Virus record (IMG/VR): IMGVR_UViG_3300032167_000073
Strand: one strand, 5' to 3'
DNA: 64,000 nt
Source of the DNA: a virus
Taxonomy: Duplodnaviria > Heunggongvirae > Uroviricota > Caudoviricetes
The notes below the pieces were generated by a model. It did not search any database. It had not been told where the DNA came from and was given only the letters and a program-made list of their open reading frames with translations. This document shows positions 29,483 through 63,139 of this stretch, in pieces; the first letter of the stretch is position 1; each line of letters opens with the position of its first letter. Made by a program: the position numbers and the translations under genes.

Positions 29483-29544
29483 GTAAGAGCAGTGAGGCCA
29501 AAGGAATAAAGCCGGAGGATAATCTGCAATGTTGGCTGGATGCT

Positions 29545-29810: not shown

Positions 29811-29813
29811 CTT

Positions 29814-29896: not shown

Positions 29897-29899
29897 AAC

Positions 29900-29987
29900 G
29901 GCGAGTTGTCCGAGTGGTTTATGGTGATGGTTTGCTAAACCATTGGCGGGAAACCGCCCACAGGTTCAAATCCTGTACTCGCCGCCA
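29900..29987 (+). tRNA. tRNA-Ser(GCT)
   Basis: acceptor ggcgagt/actcgcc, anticodon loop tGCTaaa, long variable arm, CCA. Confidence 0.8.
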
Positions 29988-29996
29988 TTTTCCCAA

Positions 29997-30073
29997 TGAT
30001 CTTTAGCTCAGTTGGTCAGAGCAAGTGACTCATAATCACTAAGTCTAGGGTTCAAGCCCCTAAAGATCAACCA
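29997..30073 (+). tRNA. tRNA-Met(CAT)
   Basis: acceptor tgatctt/aagatca, anticodon loop ctCATaa, T-loop ttcaagc, CCA. Confidence 0.75.
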
Positions 30074-30077
30074 TCTC

Positions 30078-30162
30078 GCCGACGTGACGGAATTGGCAAA
30101 CGGAGCGGACTTAAAATCCGCTGCTATCAAGCTTGTGGGTTCAAGTCCCATCGTCGGCACCA
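30078..30162 (+). tRNA. tRNA-Leu(TAA)
   Basis: acceptor gccgacg/cgtcggc, anticodon loop cTTAAaa, long variable arm, CCA. Confidence 0.8.
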
Positions 30163-30169
30163 TTTATAT

Positions 30170-30246
30170 TGCGGAGTAGAGAAGTGGTCATCTCGTCAGC
30201 CTCATGAGCTGAAGATCGCTGGTTCGAATCCAGCCTCTCGCAACCA
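30170..30246 (+). tRNA. tRNA with CAT anticodon (second Met, fMet or Ile2-lysidine type)
   Basis: anticodon arm tcagc-ctCATga-gctga, T-loop ttcgaat, CCA; acceptor with one mismatch. Confidence 0.6.
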
Positions 30247-30251
30247 TCTAT

Positions 30252-30328
30252 CTGGGTGTAGCTCAGTTTGGTAGAGCGCGTGCTTTGGGAGCATGAAGTC
30301 GGGGGTTCGAATCCCTTCACTCAGACCA
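30252..30328 (+). tRNA. tRNA-Pro(TGG)
   Basis: acceptor ctgggtg/cactcag, anticodon loop tTTGGga, CCA. Confidence 0.75.
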
Positions 30329-30331
30329 TTT

Positions 30332-30405
30332 GCAGCAGTAGTTTACTGGTAAAATAGGAGACTTCCACTCTTCGGAAACGGGTTCGATTCCCGCCTGCTG
30401 CACCA
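30332..30405 (+). tRNA. tRNA-Gly(TCC)
   Basis: acceptor gcagcag/ctgctgc, anticodon loop cTTCCac, CCA. Confidence 0.75.
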
Positions 30406-30987
30406 ACGCGCCCTGTCTGCCGCTCAGTGGCGCATGAATAAGTAAGATCAAGCGGCGGTGTCCAGACATCACAATAATCCGAAAGAGATGCCGGGCTCAG
30501 GGAACCGGAGTGGCGGGATGGAGCCGATAAACCCATTCCAGTGCTGGGACGTATGACCTCAGATAGTTGGCGGACAACGAAAAAATCTGGAATTTGCTCG
30601 ATCTGGCTGCGAGTAAGATCAGCGTCTGATTGGCGATTTATGCCGACGGACAGCAGATTGAGGCTTGCAGAGAATTGCGGATGCTGCTGCATGTGTGTCT
30701 GCGAGGGCGAAAGCTTCAATATATGATGCGATACAGGACTAACCAGATCATGACACCGTATCGAATCCACCACAGGATCTTAATGGATGAATCGGATACG
30801 ACGCATGCAGGGCGTTGTGGTGAAAAGTTCCGAGGGTAAACATGGATTGCCTCTTGTCGTGTGGCAGAGGAGGGCAAAGAACGAGGCGTGGGCGAAGTCG
30901 ATCTCTGATCATCATGTCGAAGCTTCGCGTGTATGCGGCAGGCCAAGTTGCAATCCTTGTTTACTTGTAAATCAGTTTTGTTTATTT

Positions 30988-31063
30988 GCTGGCGTAGCTC
31001 AATTGGCAGAGCAGCGGATTTGTAATCCGCAGGTTGTGGGTTCGACTCCCTTCGCCAGCTCCA
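30988..31063 (+). tRNA. tRNA-Thr(TGT)
   Basis: acceptor gctggcg/cgccagc, anticodon loop tTTGTaa, CCA. Confidence 0.8.
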
Positions 31064-31356
31064 GAAATAAATAACATCGGAGGTACACATTATGGCATTC
31101 ATCGAATCAGTCAAGGCGCGAATCAATCTGCTTGAGCAGCGCGATCCCGTTGTCAATGCGCGAATCATTGGCAAGCTGAAGCGAAAGCTGAGGAAGCTTG
31201 AAGCTCTGGAAGCGGTGACGTGCGAATGAACGATTTTGCAATCGCATGCGCAATGGTTACCGGAGTGGTTGCCCTTGCGTGCATGGTCAATCGATTCTTT
31301 CCATCTGATTATCACAAGCAGATCGAAGAAAAGTACAAAGGAGAGTAAGTAGTCAT

Positions 31357-31542
31357 ATGCCTGTGTTCTGGTTTCTGGCATTTCTTGGGCTGATTGTCCT
31401 ATGGTTCCTTCTCGCATTTGCGTATAAGGCAATCGGCAGATTCTTTAAGCGGATATTCAAGGATTCCTACGATGCTATGACGTCGGAAGATCCAAAGGAT
31501 ATATCAATCACAAACGAAAATGACGGAGGTAAAGAAGAATGA
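31357..31542 (+). CDS. small membrane protein (61 aa)
   Basis: hydrophobic N-terminus MPVFWFLAFLGLIVLWFLLAF. Confidence 0.45.
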   Translation: MPVFWFLAFLGLIVLWFLLAFAYKAIGRFFKRIFKDSYDAMTSEDPKDISITNENDGGKEE

Positions 31543-32471
31543 ATAGTGGAAAAATTGGCGGCATCCTGCTTGCTGTGATTCTTGTGATCATTGCTGGCGT
31601 GCTTATCGGCTGTGCAGTACGCATTCCTGCTGGATACGTCGGTATTGTCTATGACATGAACGGCGGCGTTGGCGATGAAGTTCTCACGCAGGGCTGGAAG
31701 CTGGTCGCTCCGACGAAGAAGGTAACGACGTACACCATCGGCCTTGAGCAGTCTGGTCTCACGGCGGAGTCTACACAGGATTCCTCTGGCGATGAGTCGT
31801 TTAACATTCCGACCAGCGATGGTAAGACGGTGAATGTCAGCCTTGAGTTCTCGTACTATTTTGATAGCGAGCGGATTGCCGACACATTTAAGCTCTTCAA
31901 GGGACAGTCTGGCGAGTCGATCAAGACCACGTTTATTAAGCCGAAGATCAAGGCATGGACACAGGAAGTTTCTGCCAATCATCCGGTTGCCGATATCTTC
32001 GGCGATCAGCGAACGGTGATTAACAATGAGCTGGATATTCACCTGAAGGAGAAGTTTGACCAGTACGGCATCATTATCGATACGGTGAACTTCACAGATA
32101 TCCGCGTGGATGAAGAGACTGCAAAGGCTATTCAGCAGAAGGTCAACGCACAGCAGGAACAGGAACTTGCGCGTATTCAGTCTGAGACTGCAAGGATTCA
32201 GGCAGAGAAGGATAAGCAGGTTGCTCTAATTGCGGCGGAAAAGGAAAAAGATGTGGCCTCTGTGAATGCAGAGCGTCAGATCATCGCTGCGCAGGCCGAG
32301 GCAGATGCGCTGATGATTCAGGCAGGAGCCGAAGCGGATGCGAACAAGCTGATTGCCGCATCTCTCACGCCGGAGCTGATCGAGAAGATTAAGTACGAGC
32401 GATGGGATGGCGCAATGCCGAAGGTGTCTGGCGGCATGCCGATTATCGATATCGGCGACGTGGGAGAGTAA
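31539..32471 (+). CDS. SPFH/band-7 (prohibitin/HflK-like) membrane protein
   Basis: N-terminal TM helix, SPFH core GYVGIVYDMNGG...QGWKLVAPTKKVTTY, long Ala/Gln/Glu coiled coil. Confidence 0.7.
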   Translation: MNSGKIGGILLAVILVIIAGVLIGCAVRIPAGYVGIVYDMNGGVGDEVLTQGWKLVAPTKKVTTYTIGLEQSGLTAESTQDSSGDESFNIPTSDGKTVNVSLEFSYYFDSERIADTFKLFKGQSGESIKTTFIKPKIKAWTQEVSANHPVADIFGDQRTVINNELDIHLKEKFDQYGIIIDTVNFTDIRVDEETAKAIQQKVNAQQEQELARIQSETARIQAEKDKQVALIAAEKEKDVASVNAERQIIAAQAEADALMIQAGAEADANKLIAASLTPELIEKIKYERWDGAMPKVSGGMPIIDIGDVGE

Positions 32472-32490
32472 TCTTCCACATAGACACTTG

Positions 32491-32512
32491 CCCGCTTCCC
32501 CTGCGGGCATTT
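32491..32512 (+). terminator. rho-independent terminator
   Basis: gcccgcttcccctgcgggc hairpin + atttc. Confidence 0.4.
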
Positions 32513-32516
32513 CACG

Positions 32517-32606
32517 GGGAGTTACCCAAGCGGCTGAAGGGGGCGGTCTTGAAAACCGCTAGGCGGCAACCCCGCGCAAGGGTTCAAATCCCTTACTCCC
32601 CGCCAT
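32517..32606 (+). tRNA. tRNA-Ser(TGA)
   Basis: acceptor ggggagt/actcccc, anticodon loop cTTGAaa, long variable arm, CCA. Confidence 0.8.
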
Positions 32607-32613
32607 TTTCTTG

Positions 32614-32698
32614 CCGGACTGGTCGGAACTGGCAGACGCGGCGGATTCAAAATCCGTTGTCTTATGACGTGTGGGTTCAAGTCCCACGTCCGGCACCA
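32614..32698 (+). tRNA. tRNA-Leu(CAA)
   Basis: acceptor gccggac/gtccggc, anticodon loop ttCAAaa, long variable arm, CCA. Confidence 0.75.
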
Positions 32699-32818
32699 TA
32701 TATAGAGAAGCTACGAAAACATTGGATGGATAAGCGCATGAAAGACTTGGCGGCTCAGACAGACCAGCCTCGCATAGTGTCTGTCGATTCCGATGATTGC
32801 GCAGCTTCTCTTTTGTTT

Positions 32819-32892
32819 GCAGACATGGTGTAGTGGAAACATATCTGATTCCCATTCAGAGGATGCGGGTTCGATTCCCGTTGTTTGCACCA
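32819..32892 (+). tRNA. tRNA-Gly(CCC)
   Basis: acceptor gcagaca/tgtttgc (with G-U pair), anticodon loop ttCCCat, T-arm gcggg-ttcgatt-cccgt, CCA. Confidence 0.6.
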
Positions 32893-32934: not shown

Positions 32935-33642
32935 ATGTATATGGATAAGAAAAGGCTCCCGTTTAATGAATCCGCTATCTCTTGTACAAATGCGGAATCT
33001 GTCTCCAATGCGGTTGCTATTTCAAGGTCTGATTCCGCGATGAGTTGCGCATCAGAAAGCTCCTATTCAAATCTTCTTGAACGTCATAATCGTGAAGTGG
33101 AAAGCGCGGCAACGAAGCATTACGAAAATGGCATGCAGTCGGATACCAAGTGCAAGATCGTCTATGAGGATGGCAAGATTAGCGTGCTCAAGCACCTTAG
33201 CACTCATATTACAAGGCATATTTGCATCATGTCTGACATCAAATCGATCAAGGTGTATAACGACAAGCACGGCAATCAGAAGTCGATGACTATGGCCTTT
33301 AACAATGGCGTAAGTGTTACTGCCTCCGTGGATGATATGGATGTATTCTCCATGGATCAGGGCATCACCATTTGCTTGCTGAAGTATATGCTGAACAGAG
33401 CTTCGGAAGGCTGCGAAACCTCTATCTATAATAAGCTTGTGAAGCACGCCAATCGCGTCTATGAAAATGGCGTGCGTGAAGAGGAAGCGGCGAAGGAAGA
33501 AGCCAAGCGCCTTGAGGCAAAGCATAAGAAGCTTGCCGCAAAGAAACAGCGCCGTAAGGCCAAGAAGCGCGAATACGAGATTGAACTTCGTAAGGAAGCA
33601 TATATTCGCGCAATGAACGAAATGCAGAACAAGCCGCTATGA
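32935..33642 (+). CDS. hypothetical protein (235 aa) with basic coiled-coil C-terminus
   Basis: C-terminus EEAAKEEAKRLEAKHKKLAAKKQRRKAKKRE. Confidence 0.5.
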   Translation: MYMDKKRLPFNESAISCTNAESVSNAVAISRSDSAMSCASESSYSNLLERHNREVESAATKHYENGMQSDTKCKIVYEDGKISVLKHLSTHITRHICIMSDIKSIKVYNDKHGNQKSMTMAFNNGVSVTASVDDMDVFSMDQGITICLLKYMLNRASEGCETSIYNKLVKHANRVYENGVREEEAAKEEAKRLEAKHKKLAAKKQRRKAKKREYEIELRKEAYIRAMNEMQNKPL

Positions 33643-34400
33643 TCTATGTAACGGGCGATTGCCACGGCGATTTTACAAGGTTCAATACCAGATTCTTCCC
33701 AGACCAAAAAGAAATGACCAAGGATGATTTTGTGATCGTCCTTGGCGACTTTGGTTTGTGGCATCCATGCAAGAGCGAATCTTATTGGCTGAAGTGGCTT
33801 AGTAACAAGCCGTTTACCACACTGTTTGTCGATGGCAACCATGAGAATTTCGATAGGCTATATAGCGATGAGTTCCCGATTGTTGATTTTCATGGCGGTA
33901 AAGCGCATAAGATCGCGGATAGCGTATATCACCTGATGCGTGGTTATGTGTTTACCTTGCAGGGCAAGACATTTTTTGCCTTTGGCGGAGCCAGCAGCCA
34001 TGATATTGACGATGGTATTCTGGATGAAAAGGATTTCCCAAGTAGACGAGCCTTTATCAAGACGTGCGCAAAGATGAACGATCTGAACAAGAAATTCAGA
34101 GTCAATCATATGGATTGGTGGGAGCAGGAGCTTCCAAGTGCTAAGGAAATAAATCGTAGTCTAATTTCCTTAAAGCAACATGATAACCGCGTTGATTTTG
34201 TCATTACGCATTGTCTTCCGCAGGATATTGCATCACTTATTTCAGGTGGGCAGTATAAGTCGGATCGTCTAACGTCATATTTTCTTTCCATTTCGCGTAA
34301 ATTGCAGTTTGATCAGTGGTATTGCGGACATTATCATAAGGATTTGCGCATTTTCTGTACATATAATGTTTTGTATCGCCGGATTATGCGTATCGTATAG
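33639..34400 (+). CDS. calcineurin-like metallophosphoesterase
   Basis: motifs GDCHGD, VLGDFG, DGNHE in canonical order. Confidence 0.7.
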   Translation: MIYVTGDCHGDFTRFNTRFFPDQKEMTKDDFVIVLGDFGLWHPCKSESYWLKWLSNKPFTTLFVDGNHENFDRLYSDEFPIVDFHGGKAHKIADSVYHLMRGYVFTLQGKTFFAFGGASSHDIDDGILDEKDFPSRRAFIKTCAKMNDLNKKFRVNHMDWWEQELPSAKEINRSLISLKQHDNRVDFVITHCLPQDIASLISGGQYKSDRLTSYFLSISRKLQFDQWYCGHYHKDLRIFCTYNVLYRRIMRIV

Positions 34401-49691: not shown

Positions 49692-50207
49692 ATGAACAAG
49701 GTTCTTATTGTTGTCGATTATCAGAACGATTTTGTGTTTGGTGCGCTTGGCAGTGCTAATGCGCAGTCGATCTATAACGGCGTAAAAGCGAAGATTGAGC
49801 AGGCGCAGAATGAAGGTACGCATGTGATTTTCACGCTTGATACGCACGATGCGGATTACATGATGACGCAGGAGGGCAAGAAGCTTCCGGTGCAGCATTG
49901 TATTGCCGGGGCACATGGATGGATGGTTGTCCAGAATCTGAATAACCTGAATGGAAATGCACATCAGTGCATCACAAAGCCAACTTTCGGCTATCTTGGC
50001 TGGGATCTTGGCGACTTTGATCAGATTGAAATGATTGGCGTATGCACGGACATCTGCGTTGTGTCCAATGCATTGATTCTCAAGGCGATGTACCCGGAAG
50101 TTGAGATTACTGTTGATGCTTCCTGTTGTGCTGGAACCTCTGTTGAAGCACATAATGCTGCGCTCACCGTCATGAAGTCCTGTCAGATCAATGTGATTGG
50201 AGAGTAA
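49692..50207 (+). CDS. isochorismatase-family hydrolase (nicotinamidase PncA-like)
   Basis: VLIVVDYQNDF start, catalytic-Cys segment IGVCTDICV. Confidence 0.7.
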   Translation: MNKVLIVVDYQNDFVFGALGSANAQSIYNGVKAKIEQAQNEGTHVIFTLDTHDADYMMTQEGKKLPVQHCIAGAHGWMVVQNLNNLNGNAHQCITKPTFGYLGWDLGDFDQIEMIGVCTDICVVSNALILKAMYPEVEITVDASCCAGTSVEAHNAALTVMKSCQINVIGE

Positions 50208-50218
50208 GGAGATTTGCC

Positions 50219-51007
50219 ATGATTAAGTATAATGGCGAAATCGTTAAGCCCGGATATTTCCCGGATGGTACGATTCATTTTAACGCCTCATGTTCAGGCA
50301 AGTCTCATCACACAATCAAGTGGCTGTTTGAGAGCAATGAAGAGTTGTTTACGCTGATTTGCTTAACCAAGCATATCAAGGAGCGTAGTAATAAGGATAT
50401 TCATTTGATTATGCCCTACGTGCCAAATGCACGTATGGATCGCATCAAGAATAGCGACGAGGTGTTCACGCTCAAATACTTTGCCGAAGTGATCAACGAT
50501 CTTGGATTCAATGAAGTTGTTGTCCTTGATCCGCATTCTCATGTTTCCGAAGCGCTCATTGATCGCGCAGTTATTGTATCGGCGAGCGATCTTATTGCTC
50601 ACGTAGCAAGCAGAATCGGCGCACCGCTATTCTTCTATCCCGATGAGGGAGCAATGAAGCGATATTCGGAAGAGGTAAAGGCCAAGTATGTTTTCGGTAT
50701 CAAAAAGCGCGATTGGAAAACCGGAAAGATCCTTGGGCTGGATGTCGTTGGAGATGCCGATGAGATTAGGGGAAAAGATATTCTGATTGTCGATGATATC
50801 TGTTCCCGTGGAGGAACGTTCTATCATAGCGCAAAGAAGCTCAAAGAGCTTGGCGCAGGCAAGATTTATCTGTGCGTTACCCATTGTGAGAATACCATTC
50901 TCGATGGTGAACTTCTTGAATCTGGCCTGATTGAAAAGGTATTTACCACAGGCTCCATCTTCACCGCTTCACATCCAAAGATCGAGGTAATTCAGTATGA
51001 GATGTAA
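50219..51007 (+). CDS. ribose-phosphate pyrophosphokinase (Prs)-family protein; candidate ADPR-pyrophosphate synthetase (Adps-like)
   Basis: LIMPYVPNARMDR (cf. Prs YFGYARQDR), VVLDPHS (cf. DLHA), PRPP-type loop DILIVDDICSRGGT, CVTH; shorter (262 aa) than housekeeping Prs. Confidence 0.65.
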   Translation: MIKYNGEIVKPGYFPDGTIHFNASCSGKSHHTIKWLFESNEELFTLICLTKHIKERSNKDIHLIMPYVPNARMDRIKNSDEVFTLKYFAEVINDLGFNEVVVLDPHSHVSEALIDRAVIVSASDLIAHVASRIGAPLFFYPDEGAMKRYSEEVKAKYVFGIKKRDWKTGKILGLDVVGDADEIRGKDILIVDDICSRGGTFYHSAKKLKELGAGKIYLCVTHCENTILDGELLESGLIEKVFTTGSIFTASHPKIEVIQYEM

Positions 51008-52514
51008 TACGAATCCAATGCTCCTTATCGATTTTTATAAGGCTGTCCATGCGGAAATGCTTCCCAAGGGCATTACCAAATCCGTTTCCTATTTCACGCC
51101 ACGTATGAGCCGTGTGAAGATGTGGGATAGCGTTGTCATGTTTGGCTTGCAGGCGTTTATCAAGACGTATCTGATTGACTATTTCAATCAGGAATTCTTT
51201 AATAAGCCGTATGAAGAGGCTGTCGGCGAGTATAAGCGCGTTATGGACGCTGCACTTGGCAAGGGCGTTTACGGCATTGAGAAGATCGAAAAGCTTCATG
51301 CTCTTGGATATCTGCCTATCAAGATCATTGCACTGCCGGAAGGAACCAAGGTTCCTATGCATGTGCCGATGTTCGGTATTACCAATACGCATGATGATTT
51401 TGCTTGGCTCCCGCAGGCGCTGGAAAGCCTTATTTCCGCTGAAATGTGGCATCCGATGATTGCAGCAACGGTTGGTCACACCTATCGTCAGATTGTCAAT
51501 AAGTATTACGACGAGACGTGTGACGACAATATTTCTCGTTCAAAGGCGCTTGGCGCGTTTGATTTCCGTGGAGAAGAGTGCTTACAGTCTGCTGTCAAGG
51601 CTGGCGCTGGCTGGTGCCTGTCCTTCCTCAATACTGCAACCGTGCCGACAATCCCATATCTTGAGCAGATGTATGATTGTGATTGCACAAAGGAAGCTGT
51701 TGCCTTTGGCAGTGCAAGCACGGAGCATTCTGTTATGTGTTCAAACTTTGCCGTCGATGGCGATGAAGTGACGCTGCTAAAGCGCTTGCTCACGGAGATT
51801 TATCCAAATACAAGCTTCTCCTGCGTGCTGGATAGTTACGATTACTGGAATGTCATCGACAATATCCTTCCGCAGATTAAGGAGGAGATTCTTGCACACA
51901 ACGGCTGTATGCTCATGCGCGGCGATTCTGGCGATTGCGTCGAAGTTGTAACTGAGACTGTCTTTAAGCTTTGGGACATGTTTGGCGGCAAGATCAACTC
52001 CAAGGGTTATAAGGTGCTCGATCCGCATGTCAAGGCGATTTATGGGGATTCCATTACCATTCAGCGTTGCGAGAAGATTTATGAGATTCTTAAAGAGAAT
52101 GGTTTTGCGGCCTGTAATGTGGCGCTCGGCGTTGGCTCGTTCTCTATGCAGTGCATCGAAGAGTATGAGTTCATCGAGGATAGGATTGAGGGTGGCGGTA
52201 TGTATGCCAATGTGCTCAAGCCGTTTACGCGCGACACCTTCTCTTCCTGTATCAAGGCGACATATTGCGAGATCGACGGTAAGCCCGTCCCGATCTTCAA
52301 GAATCCCAAGGACGGCGGCTTTAAGAAGTCTCAGAAGGGATGCTGTATCGTCAGGCGCGATGAAAGCGGAAAGCTCGTCTATACAGATGGTCATACGTGG
52401 AATGAATCTTGTACGAGCACCAATCTTCTTCGTCCGGTCTTCTGTAATGGCGGCATGCTCAGAACACAGAAGCTCAGTGAAGTGCGAGATATCCTGAATG
52501 GAGGAAATTTCTAA
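50997..52514 (+). CDS. nicotinamide phosphoribosyltransferase (Nampt/NadV)-family protein; candidate nicotinamide-ADPR transferase (Namat-like)
   Basis: ~500 aa; N-terminal NPMLLIDFYKAVH (cf. NadV DSYKxxH); overall type II PRTase length/layout. Confidence 0.65.
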   Translation: MRCNTNPMLLIDFYKAVHAEMLPKGITKSVSYFTPRMSRVKMWDSVVMFGLQAFIKTYLIDYFNQEFFNKPYEEAVGEYKRVMDAALGKGVYGIEKIEKLHALGYLPIKIIALPEGTKVPMHVPMFGITNTHDDFAWLPQALESLISAEMWHPMIAATVGHTYRQIVNKYYDETCDDNISRSKALGAFDFRGEECLQSAVKAGAGWCLSFLNTATVPTIPYLEQMYDCDCTKEAVAFGSASTEHSVMCSNFAVDGDEVTLLKRLLTEIYPNTSFSCVLDSYDYWNVIDNILPQIKEEILAHNGCMLMRGDSGDCVEVVTETVFKLWDMFGGKINSKGYKVLDPHVKAIYGDSITIQRCEKIYEILKENGFAACNVALGVGSFSMQCIEEYEFIEDRIEGGGMYANVLKPFTRDTFSSCIKATYCEIDGKPVPIFKNPKDGGFKKSQKGCCIVRRDESGKLVYTDGHTWNESCTSTNLLRPVFCNGGMLRTQKLSEVRDILNGGNF

Positions 52515-52978
52515 TGATCCAGCATGTAAAGTGCAACATTTTTGACTCTGGTGCAGACGTTGTTCTACATCAGGTCAATTGTCAGGGCGCTATGGGCAGC
52601 GGTGTTGCCCTGCAAGTTCGCAAGCGTTTCCCGCGAGTCTACTATGCCTATAAAAAGGCATGCGATGCAAAGGCTGGCGCTCGACGTGATCTGCTTGGCA
52701 TCGCCCAGATCGTCATGGCTGATTCCAATATGTTTATTGCAAACCTGTTTGCTCAGGAGAACTTTGGCTATGACGGCGCATGTTATACCGACTATGACGC
52801 TCTTCGCAAGTGTCTTGAAACTGTAAAAACCAATTGTGTTGGCAAGCGTATTGCCATTCCGTATCTGATGGGTTGTCATCGTGGAGGCGGCGATTGGTCT
52901 ATCGTGTATCAGATGATCGAGGAAGTCTTCTGCGACGATTCAGATGATGTCATTGTCTGCGAATATAACGGAGGCTGA
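52514..52978 (+). CDS. macro domain (ADP-ribose-binding/processing) protein
   Basis: NIFDSGADVVLHQVNCQGAMGSGVA and IAIPYLMGCHRGGGDW match macrodomain glycine-rich loops. Confidence 0.7.
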   Translation: MIQHVKCNIFDSGADVVLHQVNCQGAMGSGVALQVRKRFPRVYYAYKKACDAKAGARRDLLGIAQIVMADSNMFIANLFAQENFGYDGACYTDYDALRKCLETVKTNCVGKRIAIPYLMGCHRGGGDWSIVYQMIEEVFCDDSDDVIVCEYNGG

Positions 52979-52981
52979 TAA

Positions 52982-53780
52982 GATGGACGCTATGAAACTT
53001 AAAGACCAGTGCGTAGAATGGATTCGCAATTGGTTTGAAGAAAACGGCAGCGGATGCAAAGCTGTAATTGGTATTTCAGGCGGCAAGGATTCCACCGTCG
53101 TTGCGGCGCTTTGTGTAGAAGCTCTTGGCCGTGATCGTGTGTTTGGTGTGCTGATGCCCAATGGTGAACAGCCGGATATCGATGATGCGGCAGATGTTGT
53201 GAACCATCTTGGTATTGATTTTGTTCAGATCAACATTGAAGATGCATGTAACGATATTGCAACCGAAATCTGTATGCCATATAGCTTATATCGTTGCCAA
53301 GCAGACTATTCTTATACGTCTGGAGCGATCAGTATGACTGAGCAGGCGATGATCAATCTTCCTCCGCGTATTCGCATGGCAACCTTGTATGCAATCAGCC
53401 AGAGCATCGGTGGTCGCGTAGCCAATACATGCAATCTTTCCGAGGATTGGATTGGTTATTCTACCCGATATGGAGATGGCGCAGGCGATTTTGCTCCGCT
53501 TGGTGGACTGACTTGCAGCGAAGTGGTACAGATTGGGCTTGCGCTTGGTTTGCCGGAAGAGATGGTCAGGAAGGTTCCCAGCGATGGTCTGTGTGGCAAG
53601 ACGGACGAAGACAGCTTTGGCTTCTCTTATGCGGTTCTTGATCATTACATCAGGACGGGAGAGTGCAAAGATATTGCAATCAAGGCAAAGATTGACTATC
53701 TCCACAAAAAGAACGAGTTTAAGCTGAAGCCCATTCCGGTATTTCGCATTCCAATTGAATTCACTTTACGAAGAGGGTGA
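52982..53780 (+). CDS. nadE: NH3-dependent NAD+ synthetase NadE
   Basis: PP-loop VIGISGGKDSTVVAAL, ~266 aa, NadE-like layout. Confidence 0.75.
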
Positions 53781-53784
53781 TTAA

Positions 53785-54621
53785 ATGCCGGAAGAGCTAA
53801 GAAAAGACATGATCATTGAGTCAAGGCTGAGAGAGCACTTGAATCATTACCTGAAAACATATCCAAACGATTGGATTGGCATTTTCCTTCAGGGATCTCA
53901 GAACTACGGTCTGGATTATGAAACCAGCGATATCGACACAAAGATCATTGTTCTTCCATCTCTTGAGGATATTGCGCTTAATAAGCAGCCAATATCGACT
54001 ACGCTTGTCATGCCCAACGATGAACATGTGGATGTCAAGGATATCCGATTGATGTTTGATTGCTTTAAGAAGCAAAACATCAACTTCCTTGAGATCCTGT
54101 TTACAAAATGGAACATCGTCAATCCAAAGTATGACGAGCAGATGAGCGATGTGTTCATTAGACGTGAAGAGATTGCGCATTACAGCAATTATGCAGCTCT
54201 CCATTGCATGCTTGGTATGGTTAATCAGAAACGCAGCATGCTCATGAAGCCGCATCCGTCCGCAGCGGAGGTTGTGAAGAAATATGGTTATGATGGCAAA
54301 CAGCTTCATCATATGGAGCGCATCTTGGAATTCTTCTATCGGTATACAAACGGCGTTCCGTATGAAGAGTGTTTGATCAGTCAGAACCGTGATTATCTGA
54401 TTTCTCTGAAAAAGCAAGAACTTCCACTTCACGATGCGGTGCGTAGAGCAGATGAGATCGTCGATGTGATGACGGACGCTGTAGAGGCGTATAAGGTCGT
54501 CCATGATAGATACGTCAATCATGCTGTAGAAGAATTGCTGAACAAAACGCTTGTTGAAGTTATGAAGTGTGCAATTGAATCCGAGGTAAAAGATGGACTG
54601 GATGAAAGATATGAGCCCTGA
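53785..54621 (+). CDS. minimal nucleotidyltransferase (Pol-beta-like NTase fold)
   Basis: GIFLQGSQNYGLDYETSDIDTKIIV = GS-x9-13-DxD NTase signature. Confidence 0.6.
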   Translation: MPEELRKDMIIESRLREHLNHYLKTYPNDWIGIFLQGSQNYGLDYETSDIDTKIIVLPSLEDIALNKQPISTTLVMPNDEHVDVKDIRLMFDCFKKQNINFLEILFTKWNIVNPKYDEQMSDVFIRREEIAHYSNYAALHCMLGMVNQKRSMLMKPHPSAAEVVKKYGYDGKQLHHMERILEFFYRYTNGVPYEECLISQNRDYLISLKKQELPLHDAVRRADEIVDVMTDAVEAYKVVHDRYVNHAVEELLNKTLVEVMKCAIESEVKDGLDERYEP

Positions 54622-55700: not shown

Positions 55701-55952
55701 ATGGATCTTAAAGACACGATTGATATGATGACCAGCGTTGACCATCAGCAGCGTTTTAAGGCAGAATACGATCAAACCAAGATCAGGCGCGATAGGCTTT
55801 ATAGGATGGTTGAATCCTATGCAAGCGACGCACTTGGTTTCACGCCAAAGTGTCCGATGGAGCTGCTTATGGATCAGATCAAGGCGATGGACAAGTATCT
55901 GTTCATTTTGCTTGAACGAGCGAAGATCGAGGGAATCGATCTGACAACCTGA
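55701..55952 (+). CDS. hypothetical protein
   Basis: ORF on + strand. Confidence 0.4.
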   Translation: MDLKDTIDMMTSVDHQQRFKAEYDQTKIRRDRLYRMVESYASDALGFTPKCPMELLMDQIKAMDKYLFILLERAKIEGIDLTT

Positions 55953-56703: not shown

Positions 56704-56744
56704 TCCAGAAAAAGTATTGACTGAAACGTGGATTAGATGTATAA
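56701..56744 (+). promoter_or_regulatory. conserved phage promoter module, class 1
   Basis: AATCCAGAAAAAGTATTGACT (56715-56720), N18, TATAAT (56739-56744). Confidence 0.65.
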
Positions 56745-56768
56745 TAATGTCAATCAATACTTATAGGA

Positions 56769-56900
56769 GTGATCGGTATGTTATGTAAGAAATGTTTTAA
56801 GCCGATGAAAGTGGTTGTCCAGTTTACCAAGGAAAAGGCGGTGACATTCAATCGCTGCCCGATCTGCTGGTTTGAAACGAGAAAGACACCTTTTCAATTC
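56769..56900 (+). CDS. small zinc-ribbon protein
   Basis: CKKCFKPM...CPICWF; C-terminal extent uncertain (ORF reads through next promoter module). Confidence 0.35.
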
Positions 56901-56935
56901 CCTAGTTTAAAACCAAAGCAGACAAAGTATAAACA
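56901..56935 (+). promoter_or_regulatory. conserved promoter module, class 2
   Basis: AAAACCAAAGCAGACAAAGTATAAACAG. Confidence 0.45.
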
Positions 56936-56979
56936 GAACAATGCGATTGCTCCACCGGAAAAGAAAAAGGAGCAAGGAA

Positions 56980-58293
56980 ATGTACAACGCATACATTACA
57001 ACAATCCGGGATCTAAGAAAGCACAGCAACGCAGATCGTCTGCAGTGCGCAACAATCTTCGGAAATAACGTCATTGTCGATCTGAGCTATCAGGTCGGTC
57101 AGCGCGTAATCTATTTCCCGGTCGATGGTCAGCTCAGTGAAGAGTTTGCCAAGGCTAATAACCTTGTCCGAATCAAGGATGAAAACGGAAACAACACAGG
57201 CGGATATCTTGACCCGGATAAGCGGAATATCACAGCACTCAAGTTGCGCGGCGAAAAGTCTGATGGTCTGGTTCTTCCGATTAAGGTACTTGAGCCGTAT
57301 GTGGACATCAATACCCTTGTCGATGGCCAGCAGATCAGCGAGCTCAACGGGCATCTGATTTGCCGTAAGTATATTCCACGCAGACAGGCGGCGAAGACGA
57401 CTGGCGGTAACGGAAAGTATAAGGATAAGCGCAAGCCGGAGGATAAGGTTAATTATCCATTCTTCAAGGAGCATATCGACACGGCGCAGCTCGCCTATAA
57501 TCAGGGCGCGTTCAGGCCGGGTGATACATGCTACATCACCTTGAAGATGCATGGAACTTCCGCAAGAACGGCCAACACCATTGAGGTTCGCCGCAAGCCG
57601 ACTCGTTTCTATCATCATCTTTTCCGCACAAAGCCCAAGGAAACCCGTCATTATTCCTGCGTAAGCGGTACGCGCCGTACCACGCTCAGGAATTACGACG
57701 GCGGATACTATGGCAGCAATGCGTTCAGAGAGCAGTATCATGCGATGCTGCGAGATCGTCTGCCCAAGGGTATGTGCGTGTTCTACGAGATCGTTGGCTG
57801 GATTGATGAGAGCAAGACCATTATGGGACGTTGCTCCAATAAGCTGGTTAAGGATAAGGAGTTCACAAAGCAGTATGGTGATGAGACTGTCTTCTCCTAT
57901 GGCTGCGATATCGGCAAGAGCGATATCTATGTCTATCGCATGACTATGAGCAATGAGGATGGTTACGAAGTTGAAATCCCGTGGGAGCAGGTCAAGATCG
58001 AATGTGAAAAGATGGGTGTGAAGTGTGTTCCTGAATTTGAAAAGTTCATTTTCACCACTTGGGAAGACCTCATGGAGCGCGTTGAAAAGTATTACGACGG
58101 CGCAGATCCCATCGGTAAGACGCATGTACGAGAGGGCGTAGTTGTGCGAATTGATAACCGCGAGCACTTTACAGCCTATAAGCACAAGAATTTCAGCTTT
58201 AAGGTGCTTGAAGGAATCATCAAGGATACAGCGGATGCCCCGGATATTGAAGAAGCTGAGGAGCAGATGACAAATGATGTTCAAGACGAATGA
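56980..58293 (+). CDS. ATP-dependent RNA ligase (Rnl2-like nucleotidyltransferase) with N-terminal extension
   Basis: motif I KMHGTS (cf. T4 Rnl2 KIHGTN), motif IV/V REGVVVRIDN...K; start after AAGGAG RBS. Confidence 0.6.
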   Translation: MYNAYITTIRDLRKHSNADRLQCATIFGNNVIVDLSYQVGQRVIYFPVDGQLSEEFAKANNLVRIKDENGNNTGGYLDPDKRNITALKLRGEKSDGLVLPIKVLEPYVDINTLVDGQQISELNGHLICRKYIPRRQAAKTTGGNGKYKDKRKPEDKVNYPFFKEHIDTAQLAYNQGAFRPGDTCYITLKMHGTSARTANTIEVRRKPTRFYHHLFRTKPKETRHYSCVSGTRRTTLRNYDGGYYGSNAFREQYHAMLRDRLPKGMCVFYEIVGWIDESKTIMGRCSNKLVKDKEFTKQYGDETVFSYGCDIGKSDIYVYRMTMSNEDGYEVEIPWEQVKIECEKMGVKCVPEFEKFIFTTWEDLMERVEKYYDGADPIGKTHVREGVVVRIDNREHFTAYKHKNFSFKVLEGIIKDTADAPDIEEAEEQMTNDVQDE

Positions 58294-59302
58294 ACACTCT
58301 CTTGAAACTCCGCAAACTTTGGGCGTTTCAGAATGCAATTCTGACGATAAAACACCCGTTTTATTCATGATGATCGGTCTTCCGGGCAGCGGCAAGTCTA
58401 CTTACGCCAAGGAGATTGCTGCTGACCCTGAAGGTCTCCATCCGGTCATTCTCTCCTCCGATGAGCTCCGCAAGGAGCTCTTTGGAGACGATGAAGATCA
58501 GAGCCATAATGCGCAGGTTTTCGATGAGCTTCACAAGCGCATCAAGGAGAATCTGCAAAATGGCGTGAGCGTCATCTATGATGCGACCAACATCGATAAG
58601 AAGCGCCGCGTCGATTTCTTGCAGTCCATCAAGAAGATTGATTGCATTAAGACCGCTATTGCTGTGATGACTCCGTATGACGTTTGCCTTGAGCGCTGTA
58701 AGAAGCGTGACCGCAAGGTGCCGGAATACGTCATTCGCAGAATGCTCATGAACTACGCGCCGCCTCATATCCATGAGGGATTCGATTATGTCCACTTCGA
58801 CTTTGAGCATGCCGATTTGGACTGCGACGCTCCTATGAAGTATTCTCTGTGCAATCTCTCTCAGCATCCGGGCGGTTTCTTCGATCTGGATCATGAGAAT
58901 AAGCATCATCGTGATACGGTTGGCGTGCATTGCTTCAATGCTATGATGTATCTGTATTTTGCAAAGCCGAACCATAAGCTTTTGCAGCTTGCAGCCCTTC
59001 TTCATGACATTGGTAAGCCGTTTACGAAAACCAAGATGAATAAGCGCAGAGAGTTTGACGGCGACTATCATTATTATCAGCATCACTGTGTTGGCGCATA
59101 TGAATCTCTTTTCTATCTGATTTATCTTGCACTAACCAATAATGAACGCGCATATATCGCCAATCTGATCTATTACCACATGCATCCTTATATGAGCTGG
59201 AAGCAGTCTGAAAAGGCGAAGCTCAGGGATATGCGCCTGATTGGTGAGGACATGTTTGCCGATGTTATGACGCTTCATGAAGCCGACATTGCTGCACATT
59301 GA
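58274..59302 (+). CDS. polynucleotide kinase / HD phosphohydrolase (Pnkp-like end-healing enzyme)
   Basis: Walker A MMIGLPGSGKSTYAKEI, DATNIDKKRR kinase lid; C-terminal HD domain LLHDIGKP ... HH. Confidence 0.65.
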   Translation: MMFKTNEHSLETPQTLGVSECNSDDKTPVLFMMIGLPGSGKSTYAKEIAADPEGLHPVILSSDELRKELFGDDEDQSHNAQVFDELHKRIKENLQNGVSVIYDATNIDKKRRVDFLQSIKKIDCIKTAIAVMTPYDVCLERCKKRDRKVPEYVIRRMLMNYAPPHIHEGFDYVHFDFEHADLDCDAPMKYSLCNLSQHPGGFFDLDHENKHHRDTVGVHCFNAMMYLYFAKPNHKLLQLAALLHDIGKPFTKTKMNKRREFDGDYHYYQHHCVGAYESLFYLIYLALTNNERAYIANLIYYHMHPYMSWKQSEKAKLRDMRLIGEDMFADVMTLHEADIAAH

Positions 59303-59313
59303 GGTGAAATAGA

Positions 59314-59547
59314 ATGAAGAGCAAGAAGAACATGAAAGCTGCGCATGAGATCATGGATAAGATGCAGAAGACGGCAACCGCCTCCGGCATTCTGATGACC
59401 ATCAGAATCATCAAGTCTATTTACAGCGACGAGACAAAGAGCGACAAGGAGAAGCTTGATGCCATTATCGCTTTTGTCGATAGTTCCTATGAAAAGTTTG
59501 AATCCGGGCGCAAGCAGGCAGCAGAAAAGGCGGCGGCTTCTAAGTGA
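59314..59547 (+). CDS. hypothetical small protein
   Basis: ORF on + strand. Confidence 0.4.
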   Translation: MKSKKNMKAAHEIMDKMQKTATASGILMTIRIIKSIYSDETKSDKEKLDAIIAFVDSSYEKFESGRKQAAEKAAASK

Positions 59548-60005
59548 CATATAATAAGGAAGAAATTGCCTCCGTTGCTGATAGCCTGAAATGCGCAGCA
59601 CAGGCTTCTTATATCCCGTTTAACTGCGGCGCAAAATGCCCAGCTTACAATTGGTGCAAAAGCGGTACTGACGGGTTTGACAAGGATAAAGATTGCATCT
59701 TTGATCAAGCCGCTGTGATGCTTGAAGATTACATGAAGATCCTGCCAGAGCCTCTAAAGCCTCTCACAGTGGATGAGATGATTGCCTATGTGCAGGATAA
59801 GAACAGCGTCCCCGTTCTGTATTGGCTTTCACGCGATCCAAAGCGTAAATCTGGATGGGAGCATGTCGTTTCAATCACTTATGGCATTAATTTCAACGAT
59901 CAGAATCAAATGGATTTTGTGCGTGAAGGATACGGAAAAAGATATGTTGTCTTTACGAAAAAGCCATCTGATGATGAAATCGCTGCTGTCCAGTGGAGGG
60001 ATTAG
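59544..60005 (+). CDS. hypothetical protein (153 aa)
   Basis: ORF on + strand. Confidence 0.45.
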   Translation: MTYNKEEIASVADSLKCAAQASYIPFNCGAKCPAYNWCKSGTDGFDKDKDCIFDQAAVMLEDYMKILPEPLKPLTVDEMIAYVQDKNSVPVLYWLSRDPKRKSGWEHVVSITYGINFNDQNQMDFVREGYGKRYVVFTKKPSDDEIAAVQWRD

Positions 60006-60008
60006 CCG

Positions 60009-60255
60009 TATGCAATCAGGCGAAACAAGATCAAACGGGTGCTTTGTTGCACAGCTTGCAGATTATCTTCCGCATATGGTGTCAAAGGTAATCTGCCTCA
60101 AATGCTATAAGCGATGGATAGCAGTCCGTCCAACACATACATTGCTTGAATCGCTGGAATGTCCAAACTGCGGTGCCGGATACGTTATTGAAACGGGACA
60201 GGTATTGAAAAACAGCGATTCTTACAACGAAGAGGAAGTAACACATTATGAATAG
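60009..60255 (+). CDS. small zinc-ribbon protein
   Basis: CLKCYKRW...CPNCGAGY. Confidence 0.4.
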
Positions 60256-61162
60256 AGACGCACTTGGCGACCGAATGAAAGCATATCAAAATGTGCATCG
60301 CATTTATCTGACTAGGCGCATGCCTCTGATTATCCGTATTGATGGCAAGGCGTTCCGTAGTTATACCCGCAATTTTACGCAGCCATATGACAACGTTCTC
60401 ATTTCTTCGATGCAGCAGACAGCGAAGTATCTGTGCGAAAACATCGAGGGGTGCAAGCTTGCTTATACGCAGTCGGACGAGATTTCACTTCTTCTGACGG
60501 ATTATAAGACGTTCAATACGCAGCCATGGTTTAGCAAGAATTTGCAGAAGATGGTGTCCGTCGCAGCAAGTATGGCGACTATGGCGTTCAACCAAGCATT
60601 TACCGATGCAACTTTTGATGCAGCAAATTATGCTTACAACGATGAATTGCATAACACTACGGAAGATCGTCAAAAGGCATATGCCGAAGTAATGAACAGG
60701 TATAAAGCAAAATGTGGCATGGCAATGTTCGATGCCCGTGCATTCCTTCTCCCCAAAGAAGAGGTGTGCAATTACTTCATCTGGCGGCAGCAGGACGCAT
60801 CTAGGAATTCCATCAATATGCTTGGCAGAGCATATTTCTCTCATAAAGAGATGAACGACAAGAATACCAGCCAGATTCAGGACATGCTCATTGAAAAGTA
60901 TGGTATCAACTGGAACGACATTGAAACGCATAAGAAGCGCGGTTCCTGTGTGATCAAGGAGACCTACGAAACGAAGGTTCCAATGACAAAGGTTCGTCCA
61001 AAGAAGGATTCTCCTGAAAACTGGCAGGACATTGAATTCATTCCTATCGCACCAGAACTCGATGTTCCAACCATTCAGCGATCCAGATGGATTGTTGATA
61101 TGGAGATCCCAATTTTTACAAAAGACCGTGAGTATATCGATAAGTATGTACGAGGAGGCTGA
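60248..61162 (+). CDS. Thg1-like protein (tRNA-His guanylyltransferase family 3'-5' polymerase)
   Basis: YLTRRMPLIIRIDGKAFRSYTRNFTQPYD and AYTQSDEISLLL match Thg1/TLP catalytic core. Confidence 0.7.
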   Translation: MNRDALGDRMKAYQNVHRIYLTRRMPLIIRIDGKAFRSYTRNFTQPYDNVLISSMQQTAKYLCENIEGCKLAYTQSDEISLLLTDYKTFNTQPWFSKNLQKMVSVAASMATMAFNQAFTDATFDAANYAYNDELHNTTEDRQKAYAEVMNRYKAKCGMAMFDARAFLLPKEEVCNYFIWRQQDASRNSINMLGRAYFSHKEMNDKNTSQIQDMLIEKYGINWNDIETHKKRGSCVIKETYETKVPMTKVRPKKDSPENWQDIEFIPIAPELDVPTIQRSRWIVDMEIPIFTKDREYIDKYVRGG

Positions 61163-62521: not shown

Positions 62522-63139
62522 ATGGATAACCAGATGAACATTGATCGCTTTGAAAATCTGCTTTCCAACGTCAAGCGTGAAGGAATGCCTGCGCTGATGG
62601 CTTTTATTAAGAAGTCCGATTTTTATACGGCTCCTGCAAGCACGCGCTATCATTCCTGTCACGAGGGCGGACTGCTTGAGCACAGCCTCAACGTTTACGA
62701 TTGCCTAATGGCAAAGCTTGAAAACCCCACTTGGGCAGAAGCGCTTTCTCAAGTTGAGCCGGAGAGCATCGTTATTGCCGCTCTGCTTCATGATCTCTGC
62801 AAGTGTTATTACTATGCGGTAGAAATGAAGAACAAGAAGGTGTACAGCGAAACGGGCAGCAAGGTCGATAATGGTGGTCGCTATGATTGGCAGCTCGTTC
62901 CCGGCTATACGACGGATGACAAAATTCCGTATGGTCATGGCGAAAAGTCCGTCATGATGATCGAAGAGTATATCAGGCTCAAGCCCGTTGAGCGTTACGC
63001 GATCCGTTGGCATATGGGATTCACTGAGCCAAAGGAAAGCTGGAATACGCTCGGTCTTGCCATGAAAAAGCATCCATTGATTCTTGCCATTCATGAGGCG
63101 GACGTTGAAGCAACCTATCTGCTTGAAAAAGAGGAATAA
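62522..63139 (+). CDS. HD-domain phosphohydrolase
   Basis: H...HEGGLLEHSL and AALLHDLCK (HD motif). Confidence 0.65.
   Translation: MDNQMNIDRFENLLSNVKREGMPALMAFIKKSDFYTAPASTRYHSCHEGGLLEHSLNVYDCLMAKLENPTWAEALSQVEPESIVIAALLHDLCKCYYYAVEMKNKKVYSETGSKVDNGGRYDWQLVPGYTTDDKIPYGHGEKSVMMIEEYIRLKPVERYAIRWHMGFTEPKESWNTLGLAMKKHPLILAIHEADVEATYLLEKEE

Follow-up and report, generated by a model that had tools for sequence, protein, structure and literature searches.

What does a phage repair with an RNA ligase, an end-healing enzyme, and a Thg1-like protein (TLP), all encoded together in a single run of genes? The question arises from IMG/VR virus record IMGVR_UViG_3300032167_000073 (Caudoviricetes), of which we analyzed a stretch of 64,000 nucleotides (nt), referred to here as the window. 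Judging from homology, we favor, with moderate confidence, the reading that positions 56717 to 61162 would constitute a phage early/middle operon that repairs broken RNA, most plausibly tRNA cut by ribonucleases of the host or of a rival element. A preliminary description of the locus had already placed the ligase, a polynucleotide kinase fused to an HD domain (Pnk-HD), and the TLP on the plus strand; their coordinates proved exact, hidden Markov model (HMM) searches and structure comparisons give strong support, and the catalytic residues are intact. Domain HMM searches, which that description had proposed as a check, recovered all three: an RNA ligase, a P-loop protein of the polynucleotide kinase clade with an HD domain, and a TLP of the bacterial type. 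The operon comprises the following features, with lengths in amino acids (aa) for each open reading frame (ORF):

56717 to 56745, plus strand: predicted sigma-70-like promoter (TTGACT-17-TATAAT, 11/12 consensus matches)
56778 to 57068, plus strand: small Zn-ribbon ORF of ~96 aa (CxxC...CPxC), with a 3' end that overlaps the start of the ligase in a different frame
56980 to 58293, plus strand: RNA ligase of 437 aa, with an OB domain and a nucleotidyltransferase domain
58274 to 59302, plus strand: Pnk-HD of 342 aa, with a kinase and an HD domain
59314 to 59547, plus strand: 77-aa ORF, from gene calls
59544 to 60005, plus strand: 153-aa ORF with a Cys-rich N-terminal part (CGAKCPAYNWC...)
60010 to 60255, plus strand: 81-aa Zn-ribbon ORF (CLKC...CPNC), with an 8-nt overlap with the TLP start
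60248 to 61162, plus strand: TLP of 304 aa

Across the 56.7- to 61.2-kb interval, the ORFs run on the plus strand and overlap or abut their neighbors, and the gene calls of contigs identical to the window (L036 to L039; names of this form denote the sequence loci of relatives and public contigs that were compared) agree. The predicted promoter, located just past the stop codon of a DNA methylase gene, has the top promoter score within 53 to 64 kb and, as a consensus match only, is the likely start of the operon. An AGGAG ribosome-binding site precedes the ligase ATG at 56980, and the identical 437-aa ligase, start included, is found in public contigs. As had been described, the ligase is directly followed by the P-loop kinase fused to an HD domain; their ORFs overlap by 20 nt in the window and by 11 to 26 nt in L033 and L035, an arrangement compatible with coupled translation. 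The TLP had been placed two genes later: its Thg1-like identity holds, and the spacing is in fact three small ORFs (77, 153, and 81 aa). The 77-aa and 153-aa ORFs have no match in Pfam, PHROGs, or NCBIfam, and the small Zn-ribbon ORF at the head of the operon has homologues at the equivalent position in L033, L035, L040, and L051 (48 to 52% identity). Searched at the nucleotide level, the region matched none of 50,697 phage records, and thus no cultured close relative is usable. In a PADLOC scan, the ligase, Pnk-HD, and TLP resembled no known defense protein, generic HD similarity aside.

Judged by its domain content, the ligase has the architecture of the Rnl5 family and represents a phage subfamily that is longer and divergent. 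Its matches are to Pfam RNA_ligase (PF09414, 3.9e-8), the PHA02142 OB domain (PF21189, 6.7e-6), which comes first, and phrog_968, "RNA ligase" (1.3e-76). The OB domain is N-terminal (about residues 1 to 130), ahead of the nucleotidyltransferase domain, whose motif I (KMHGTS, K189 to S194, nt 57544 to 57561) contains the predicted lysine nucleophile, K189. Motifs I, Ia, III, IIIa, IV, and V are invariant across an 11-sequence alignment in which identity goes down to 30% (invariant residues K189xHGTS, G230-R232-R233, E270, Y317-Y319-R320, E385-G386..R390, and K401xK403). Nucleotidyltransferase motifs I to V are common to all ATP-dependent RNA ligases and do not separate families. Past motif V (K401, K403), the protein has only ~34 acidic residues, for which the predicted local distance difference test (pLDDT) is <35, and it is without a C-terminal domain. 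The Rnl2 type is ruled out by the OB domain in front together with the missing C-terminal all-helical domain after motif V; of the earlier label, an Rnl2-like ligase with motif I KMHGTS, the RNA ligase and the motif were borne out, and the Rnl2 affiliation gives way to Rnl5 architecture. By definition, Rnl5 ligases consist of an N-terminal OB domain followed by a C-terminal adenylyltransferase domain and nothing else, and they use Mn2+ to seal nicks in duplexes in which the 3'-OH side is RNA (PMC5397189).

Comparisons with known structures lead to the same family. A phmmer search of the ligase against PDB found nothing significant, such that a profile search was needed; it placed Naegleria NgrRnl at the top (6e-5, via the OB domain) and T4 Rnl2 at 2e-3, through the nucleotidyltransferase core only. 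NCBIfam model TIGR02306 (RNA_lig_DRB0094, i.e., DraRnl) matches at 1.2e-12, but partially (OB domain through motif I) and at 47.4 bits, below the equivalog cutoff of 151. The AlphaFold model, from a shallow alignment in which every row is >70% identical, reached a pLDDT of 64 and a predicted template modeling score of 0.48. In a Foldseek search with this model, the 13 best matches were all NgrRnl (E down to 4.5e-12, ~380 to 420 aligned columns), next came T4 Rnl2 (4.6e-5), and DNA ligase appeared only at E 0.16; this ranking is informative, whereas the template modeling (TM) scores of 0.22 to 0.32 are not. Identity as an RNA ligase, not a DNA ligase, is supported, and the grouping with DNA ligases against which the preliminary description had guarded was not found. 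The phage ligase is like NgrRnl and DraRnl in its OB and adenylyltransferase domains, its lack of a further C-terminal domain, and its full set of nucleotidyltransferase motifs, but it is ~100 aa longer (437 versus ~340), has insertions, and falls into a separate subfamily (PHA02142 OB, phrog_968).

The kinase half of Pnk-HD is a P-loop domain of the polynucleotide kinase clade. The protein matches AAA_33 (3e-27), HD (1.5e-6), and, in PDB, the kinase domain of C. thermocellum Pnkp (CthPnkp; 2e-18), to which its confident model (pLDDT 89.6) corresponds with a TM score of 0.75 to 0.79 and a root-mean-square deviation of 2.6 to 3.3 Å; further PDB matches of the kinase are PSTK, Pnkp1, fungal Trl1 kinases, mammalian PNKP, and T4 Pnk. 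It has a P-loop (G35 to S42) and an SSD63 general-base motif. In an alignment of 51 homologues (47 to 87% identity), kinase residues G35, G40, K41, S61, and D103 are invariant, S62 and D63 occur in at least 90%, and R112 and R145 are invariant or nearly so; in the HD half, H212, H219, H244, D245, H266, H270, H302, and D338 are all invariant. By sequence profile, the sole PDB relative of the HD half is the HD region of a class II tRNA nucleotidyltransferase, the A-adding enzyme (9e-7). This half also matches the CCA enzyme of NCBIfam TIGR02692 (1.9e-7), and the HD domain of a phage CCA-adding enzyme in L042 matches the Pnk-HD profile; kinase matches dominate the Foldseek list of the full protein, and the fold neighbors of the HD half are not resolved by structure. 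In phrog_6931 (343 positions), the kinase aligns to positions 179 to 338 and the HD domain to 27 to 124. As read from these alignments, the order in Pnk-HD (kinase N-terminal, HD C-terminal) is the reverse of that in phrog_6931 and in the HD-Pnk of Runella. Proteins of this kind are abundant, with 1,980 database matches at E <= 1e-5.

Three known systems bear on the pairing of ligase and Pnk-HD. HD-Pnk of Runella slithyformis (Munir and Shuman 2017, via PMC6097658), described in the latter article as a DNA/RNA end-healing enzyme, likewise unites an HD phosphoesterase and a 5'-OH kinase in one polypeptide, and its ORF, too, lies directly 3' of, and overlaps, that of an ATP-dependent ligase, a likeness of gene order. 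Relative to the Runella cluster, the phage locus has the reversed domain order, no Tpt1 or MTase-HIT genes, and a phage setting. The T4 answer to PrrC (Pnkp with Rnl1/Rnl2) follows the same heal-and-seal logic with a kinase, a 3'-phosphoesterase, and an ATP-dependent RNA ligase, and the kinase domain is homologous to that of T4 Pnk (1LTQ; E 0.007 by sequence, 2.7e-5 by profile). Unlike T4, the window phage has an HD domain in place of the HAD/DxD phosphatase (with no HAD match), a ligase that is Rnl5-like rather than Rnl1 or Rnl2, and adjacent genes whose ORFs overlap. In contrast with C. thermocellum Pnkp/Hen1, only the kinase domain matches (TIGR04075 positions 10 to 183 of 851; 75 bits versus a cutoff of 750), and no Hen1 is present among the window ORFs scanned.

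The third enzyme matches Pfam Thg1 (5.2e-28), phrog_4717 (1.4e-92), and the Bacillus thuringiensis TLP (BtTLP, 4KGK; 1.5e-70). Its residues D32 and D77-E78 align with the metal-binding carboxylates of the RIDG and SDEIS motifs in BtTLP, and the SDE motif occurs in 119/120 of the nearest homologues. Where C. albicans Thg1 has CHINNLYN, the window protein has ASRNSINML and is therefore without the eukaryotic HINNLYN motif, which recognizes the tRNA-His anticodon. It shares its catalytic carboxylates and TLP-type motif with BtTLP and with the phage "tRNA-His guanylyltransferases" of phrog_4717; it differs from them in having two insertions (about 121 to 151 and 243 to 277, relative to BtTLP), a Gln at position 45, and an operon link to healing and sealing enzymes. 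At 304 aa, it is the longest among its 120 nearest homologues; an identical TLP is encoded on a 137-kb contig, and the next relative is only 58% identical. Q45 occupies the position of BtTLP K43, at which 116/118 relatives have Lys or Arg (of the 120 nearest homologues, 79 have Arg, 37 Lys, 1 His, and 1 Gln, the last being the window TLP itself). BtTLP uses K43 for ATP activation, and K43A cuts adenylylation ~10-fold and leaves guanylylation unchanged (PMC3701042); because Gln45 replaces Lys/Arg and the K43A change spares guanylylation, the window TLP probably relies on GTP, not ATP, to activate 5' ends. BtTLP repairs 5'-truncated tRNAs in vitro, and the cellular role of TLPs has only been guessed at (PMC3701042).

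Two of the small ORFs ahead of the TLP appear to be its partners. The Cys-rich N-terminal part of the 153-aa ORF is homologous to the first half, and the 81-aa Zn-ribbon ORF (63% identity) to the second half, of a 129-aa protein encoded ahead of the TLP in L033 and L051. By these homologies, a Cys-rich/Zn-ribbon protein travels with the TLP in both TLP-bearing lineages of the core described below, as one gene in L033 and split in two in the window. A universal Zn-ribbon partner for TLPs was considered and rejected: a CxxC...CxxC ORF lies directly upstream in only 4/19 loci, and the partnership is thus lineage specific.

The surroundings of the ligase in other phages separate what is constant in this operon from what is not. 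Ligase and Pnk-HD are adjacent, in the same order, in Tsamsa-like Bacillus phages, eight IMG/VR loci, and relatives from gut metagenomes. Every Pnk-HD locus examined has the ligase directly upstream (L004, L005, L024 to L031, L033 to L041, and L051), as do L032, whose ligase is divergent, and L048, a Stenotrophomonas phage in which a kinase-only match comes directly after the ligase. The conserved core consists of the small Zn-ribbon ORF, the ligase, and the overlapping Pnk-HD, and it is found in phages of gut Clostridia and in Tsamsa-like Bacillus phages. The latter, the siphophages vB_BcoS-136, PBC2, Kirov, Thrax1, and Thrax3, have the orthologous pair (55 to 57% identity for the ligase, 31 to 33% for Pnk-HD) and are likewise large (160 to 170 kb) and equipped with genes for salvage of nicotinamide adenine dinucleotide (NAD); unlike the window phage, they have no TLP nearby and carry their own DNA ligase three genes downstream, and their pair has been annotated only. 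Assemblies of Acetatifactor muris and Lachnospiraceae contain annotated relatives of the ligase, and related contigs measure ~150 to 170 kb; these two observations point to a large phage of gut Clostridia as the source of the window.

Around this core, the ligase of relatives is accompanied by other RNA repair enzymes. In L042 to L044, RlaP, a CCA-adding enzyme with an HD domain, and a DHH phosphoesterase precede the same ligase, in place of Pnk-HD, and a strong RlaP lies two genes upstream of the ligase in L040. The picture is that of an RNA repair neighborhood around the ligase in which accessory enzymes are interchangeable. A possible counterpart lies within the window:

53785 to 54621, plus strand: divergent RlaP-like Pol-beta nucleotidyltransferase (GSx..SDIDxK motif), 2.4 kb upstream of the ligase

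This protein scores just under the threshold for Pfam RlaP (PF10127; 8.5e-5, 22.8 bits versus a cutoff of 23) and matches phrog_388 (3.9e-13). Its catalytic core (GS...SDxD) is ~35% identical to that of the true RlaP beside the ligase in L040 and L042, and the gene is syntenic in L033, L035, and L051. We consider an auxiliary 3'-end nucleotide-adding enzyme a possible identity for it.

The TLP, in contrast to the core, is variable. The trio of ligase, Pnk-HD, and TLP is present in the window lineage, L033, L034, and L051, with ligases 81% and TLPs 56% identical. In L035, whose ligase is 82% identical, the slot between Pnk-HD and Sak holds an unrelated 252-aa ORF, and in L024, L025, L040, and L041 it is empty. 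TLP and Cys-rich/Zn-ribbon protein thus form a variable cassette in this slot, carried by two of the sampled core lineages, and the trio of the preliminary description is not conserved as a whole: the core is ligase plus Pnk-HD, and the TLP is missing from most close relatives. TLP homologues occur in 159/50,697 phage records, and most TLP loci and cultured TLP phages are without a ligase or Pnk within 8 kb. TLPs are nonetheless found near ligases elsewhere: in L006 to L009, a ligase lies 4 to 7 kb upstream of the TLP, and L049 has the order canonical Rnl5-type ligase, 136-aa ORF, TLP, metallophosphoesterase. In L022 and L023, a protein with Pnk and HD domains is encoded 6 kb upstream of the TLP.

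In two of these loci, the genes themselves have unusual features. The ligase of L049, a widespread TLP-bearing contig, is split (5284 to 6430), with the OB domain and motif I on the plus strand and the C-terminal half of the nucleotidyltransferase on the minus strand, which is either a misassembly or a real inversion. In the IMG/VR phage L007, the interval from ligase to TLP (1604 to 7978) encodes RNase T-like exonuclease, AAA_28 P-loop, NADAR, SIR2, and YqeY-like proteins, mixing genes for NAD/ADP-ribose processing with genes for RNA repair.

A second part of the window encodes tRNAs:

24355 to 32892, plus strand: tRNA gene arrays (16 tRNAs by ARAGORN, 15 by Rfam; 15 canonical plus one odd tRNA-like gene)

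At least 15 phage tRNAs had been counted in the preliminary description, and both programs agree with that number. All 16 have paired acceptor-stem 5' ends and 14/16 encode CCA; no tRNA-His was found by ARAGORN or Rfam in the 64-kb window, which is part of the genome. Two members of the arrays are irregular. The odd tRNA-like gene (24624 to 24697, plus strand), situated between tRNA-Gln and tRNA-Lys, has by ARAGORN a 6-nt anticodon loop (8 nt if the closing pair opens), is Lys/Glu-like, encodes no CCA, and falls below the Rfam gathering score; possible explanations are a pseudo-tRNA, a decoy, and a variant that evades nucleases. In the second CAU-anticodon tRNA (30170 to 30246, plus strand), the acceptor stem is irregular: ARAGORN draws it with 8 positions, mismatched A-C and U-C pairs, and only one spacer nucleotide, and Rfam starts this tRNA one base later.

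These tRNAs and the mobility of the cassette bear on whether the TLP belongs to the same pathway as its neighbors. It might instead be an independent mobile accessory in a permissive slot, maturing or quality-controlling phage tRNAs (for example, by adding G-1 to a tRNA-His that the phage might encode beyond the window) rather than answering nuclease damage. The variable contents of the slot between Pnk-HD and Sak (including a TLP cassette in the window, L033, and L051) agree with such independence, as do the 56% identity of TLPs in lineages whose ligases are 81% identical and the many TLP-bearing phages without a ligase or Pnk within 8 kb; moreover, TLP-bearing Bacillus phages carry many tRNAs, which the TLP has been suggested to modify (PMC3601020). 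Against it, TLP and ligase are near neighbors in four or more distinct lineages whose partner genes differ, and the protein has the TLP-type motif and not the tRNA-His-specific Thg1 motif. The window tRNAs offer it no obvious substrate: maturation of a window-encoded tRNA-His as the job of the TLP is rejected, there being no tRNA-His among them, and 5' editing of the type known from protist mitochondria is rejected as well, since no tRNA has a mismatch at acceptor positions 1 to 3. We regard an independent TLP as quite unlikely.

A further alternative retains RNA repair and changes the substrate: the module might reseal mRNA or rRNA cut by MazF-like, RnlA-like, or Cas13 nucleases, or it might process phage RNA through exon ligation or circularization. 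Nick-sealing ligases and Pnk enzymes are not tRNA specific, a role of the TLP family in general RNA quality control has been suggested (PMC3701042), and a reverse transcriptase (22654 to 23748) shows that the phage has other RNA-based processes. However, an Rfam search of the window found no intron, ribozyme, or other structured RNA besides the tRNAs; the partner enzymes in relatives (CCA enzyme, TLP) are tRNA centered; and the requirement of Rnl5 ligases for a nick in a duplex suits the stems of tRNA better than single-stranded mRNA. A substrate other than tRNA is, on this evidence, very improbable.

For the repair of tRNA, which we continue to prefer, a course of events can be proposed in which every step is drawn from homology. 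A metal-independent ribotoxin would leave 2',3'-cyclic-phosphate and 5'-OH ends. The P-loop kinase of Pnk-HD would then phosphorylate the 5'-OH, and its HD domain, of the CCA-adding-enzyme type, would strip the 2',3'-cyclic, 3'-, or 2'-phosphate to give a 3'-OH. Adenylylated on K189, the ligase would transfer AMP to the 5'-phosphate and seal the nick, acting, by way of its N-terminal OB domain, on nicks held in a duplex or stem structure. Nicks made by metal-dependent nucleases, with a 3'-OH and presumably a 5'-phosphate, could be sealed by the ligase without healing; the AriB nuclease of PARIS, for one, nicks the anticodon stem and leaves a 3'-OH (PMC12409363). As an optional add-on, the TLP would rebuild missing 5' nucleotides of the acceptor stem with the 3' strand as a template, for which the kinase can supply the 5'-phosphate that a TLP needs, and the RlaP-like nucleotidyltransferase may restore 3'-terminal nucleotides. 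The phage tRNAs and a block of NAD+ salvage genes would make up the remainder of a counterdefense region.

A stronger form of this proposal, which we put forward tentatively and judge unlikely, would join the TLP and its Cys-rich/Zn-ribbon partner, Pnk-HD, and the Rnl5-like ligase into one "heal, rebuild, seal" pathway for tRNAs from which a defense nuclease has removed nucleotides. Its targets would be tRNAs truncated at the 5' end of the acceptor stem or subjected to excision, such as the removal of the wobble base by RloC-type enzymes; the kinase would provide the 5'-phosphate on which the TLP acts, and the Gln45 variant would use GTP.

Putative repair of tRNA is the best reading of the locus; several points weigh against it. 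The physiological functions of Rnl5 ligases have been called "uncharted," and loss of DraRnl sensitizes Deinococcus to ionizing radiation, which ties the family to DNA repair (PMC5397189). The related Runella ligase sealed none of the 3'-OH/5'-PO4 substrates tried (PMC6097658). The structural model of the ligase is of low confidence (pLDDT 64), the TLP is missing from L035, L024, L025, L040, and L041 and mostly occurs apart from any ligase or Pnk, and in the literature searched no known defense nuclease is documented to truncate tRNA 5' ends. Moreover, genes for replication and recombination come next after the operon: the TLP is followed in the window by an 81-aa ORF, Sak recombinase, an SSB-like protein, and an HD protein, the identical contig L037 extends this block with DnaB, DnaG, and a PD-(D/E)XK protein, and relatives such as L040 add PolIII-alpha. 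As to the attackers, the targets named in the preliminary description (PrrC, RloC, retron, PARIS, and VapC) are conjecture, and the sequence points to no particular nuclease.

These adjoining genes give rise to the main rival to RNA repair, according to which the ligase and Pnk-HD serve phage DNA metabolism and the operon is the first part of a replication and recombination module. Their substrates would be nicks with ribonucleotide 3'-OH ends, as in RNA-primed Okazaki fragments, breaks that contain ribonucleotides, or replicating DNA damaged by nucleases. Beyond the contiguity of the operon with Sak (a single-strand annealing protein) and the genes after it, and the radiation sensitivity caused by DraRnl deletion, it fits that Rnl5 needs RNA only on the 3'-OH side and accepts DNA as 5'-PO4 and template strands (PMC5397189), and that Runella HD-Pnk is a healing enzyme for DNA as well as RNA ends (PMC6097658). 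It fits, too, that no homologue of the ATP-dependent DNA ligase of the Tsamsa type occurs in the window, which is part of the genome, or in the loci of relatives that were compared. On the other side, the Tsamsa-like phages have the same pair and a separate DNA ligase three genes away, such that the ligase/Pnk-HD pair is not their replicative ligase. The kinase clusters with the RNA repair kinases of CthPnkp, Pnkp1, and Trl1, and also with PSTK, and the enzymes found near the ligase in relatives (CCA-adding enzyme, RlaP, TLP) are tRNA specific or associated with RNA repair. Repair of DNA or replication nicks is, in our estimate, unlikely as the function of the operon.

The HD protein of the downstream block (62522 to 63139, plus strand; 205 aa; phrog_28876, 1e-38) is a stand-alone HD/HDIG phosphohydrolase. 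Its synteny with Sak and the SSB-like protein is strict in every relative, with or without ligase, Pnk-HD, or TLP, and it probably belongs to the recombination/replication block. On the other flank, the NAD+ salvage block (~49692 to 53780, plus strand) lies directly upstream of the RlaP-like gene; gene calls of the identical contig L036 give an isochorismatase/nicotinamidase, a ribose-phosphate pyrophosphokinase, NAMPT, a 154-aa ORF, and NAD synthase, and the block probably counters NAD-depleting defenses. Between the RlaP-like gene and the operon, an 83-aa ORF (55701 to 55952, plus strand) has a precomputed Pfam match to "Sequestin" (PF21825) in L036. The reverse transcriptase (plus strand, 364 aa; RVT_1, 1.6e-15, with generic PADLOC reverse transcriptase matches) lies just upstream of the tRNA array and is preceded by a DUF6273 protein (21206 to 22063); a diversity-generating retroelement is a possible identity. 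A TnpB-like protein (19897 to 21339, plus strand) contains a Cas12f1-like TNB domain (2.9e-17), and a calcineurin-like metallophosphoesterase (33639 to 34400, plus strand) adjoins the tRNA arrays.

Viewed against earlier work, the parts of the operon are of known kinds, and the concept of phage RNA repair kits, including a sporadic Thg1, is not new; the arrangement is, and the advance is incremental. The RNA repair parts of phages enumerated in passages of Iyer et al. (2021; PMC7824862) include ATP-dependent RNA ligases, Pnk, phosphoesterases (HD in few), RlaP (defined by Burroughs and Aravind 2016, as cited there), CCA enzyme, and sporadic Thg1. The window phage is like the jumbo phages treated in those passages in this parts list, its many tRNAs, and its NAD+ salvage; it is unlike them in not being a jumbo phage (related contigs measure ~150 to 170 kb) and in having its parts in one operon. 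The same passages make no mention of Rnl5-type ligases or of the order of the Pnk-HD fusion. The rarity of Thg1-like proteins in phage repair cassettes, asserted in the preliminary description, is confirmed by the counts given above, although the protein was already on that list for jumbo phages, and a phage TLP had been remarked on as early as 2013 (PMC3601020). In the full-text literature searched, we found neither work on the function of any phage TLP nor mention of the domain order of Pnk-HD or of an operon that combines a TLP with enzymes for healing and sealing ends.

The locus places two enzyme families without a known job, the Rnl5 ligases and the bacterial-type TLPs, in one operon with an end-healing enzyme. 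It offers a tractable system, with three small proteins and a natural series of TLP presence and absence among close relatives, and Pnk-HD is a biochemical target in itself, as an abundant and uncharacterized domain-order variant of Runella HD-Pnk. Were the "heal, rebuild, seal" pathway true, it would be the first physiological role for bacterial-type TLPs and Rnl5 ligases and would imply an undescribed class of defense that attacks tRNA 5' ends in gut Clostridia. The occurrence of an Rnl5 ligase and a TLP in one operon with a healing enzyme, together with tRNAs, an NAD+ block, and repair parts that are swapped among relatives, leads to the hypothesis of counterdefense RNA repair, which may be the natural role of both families.

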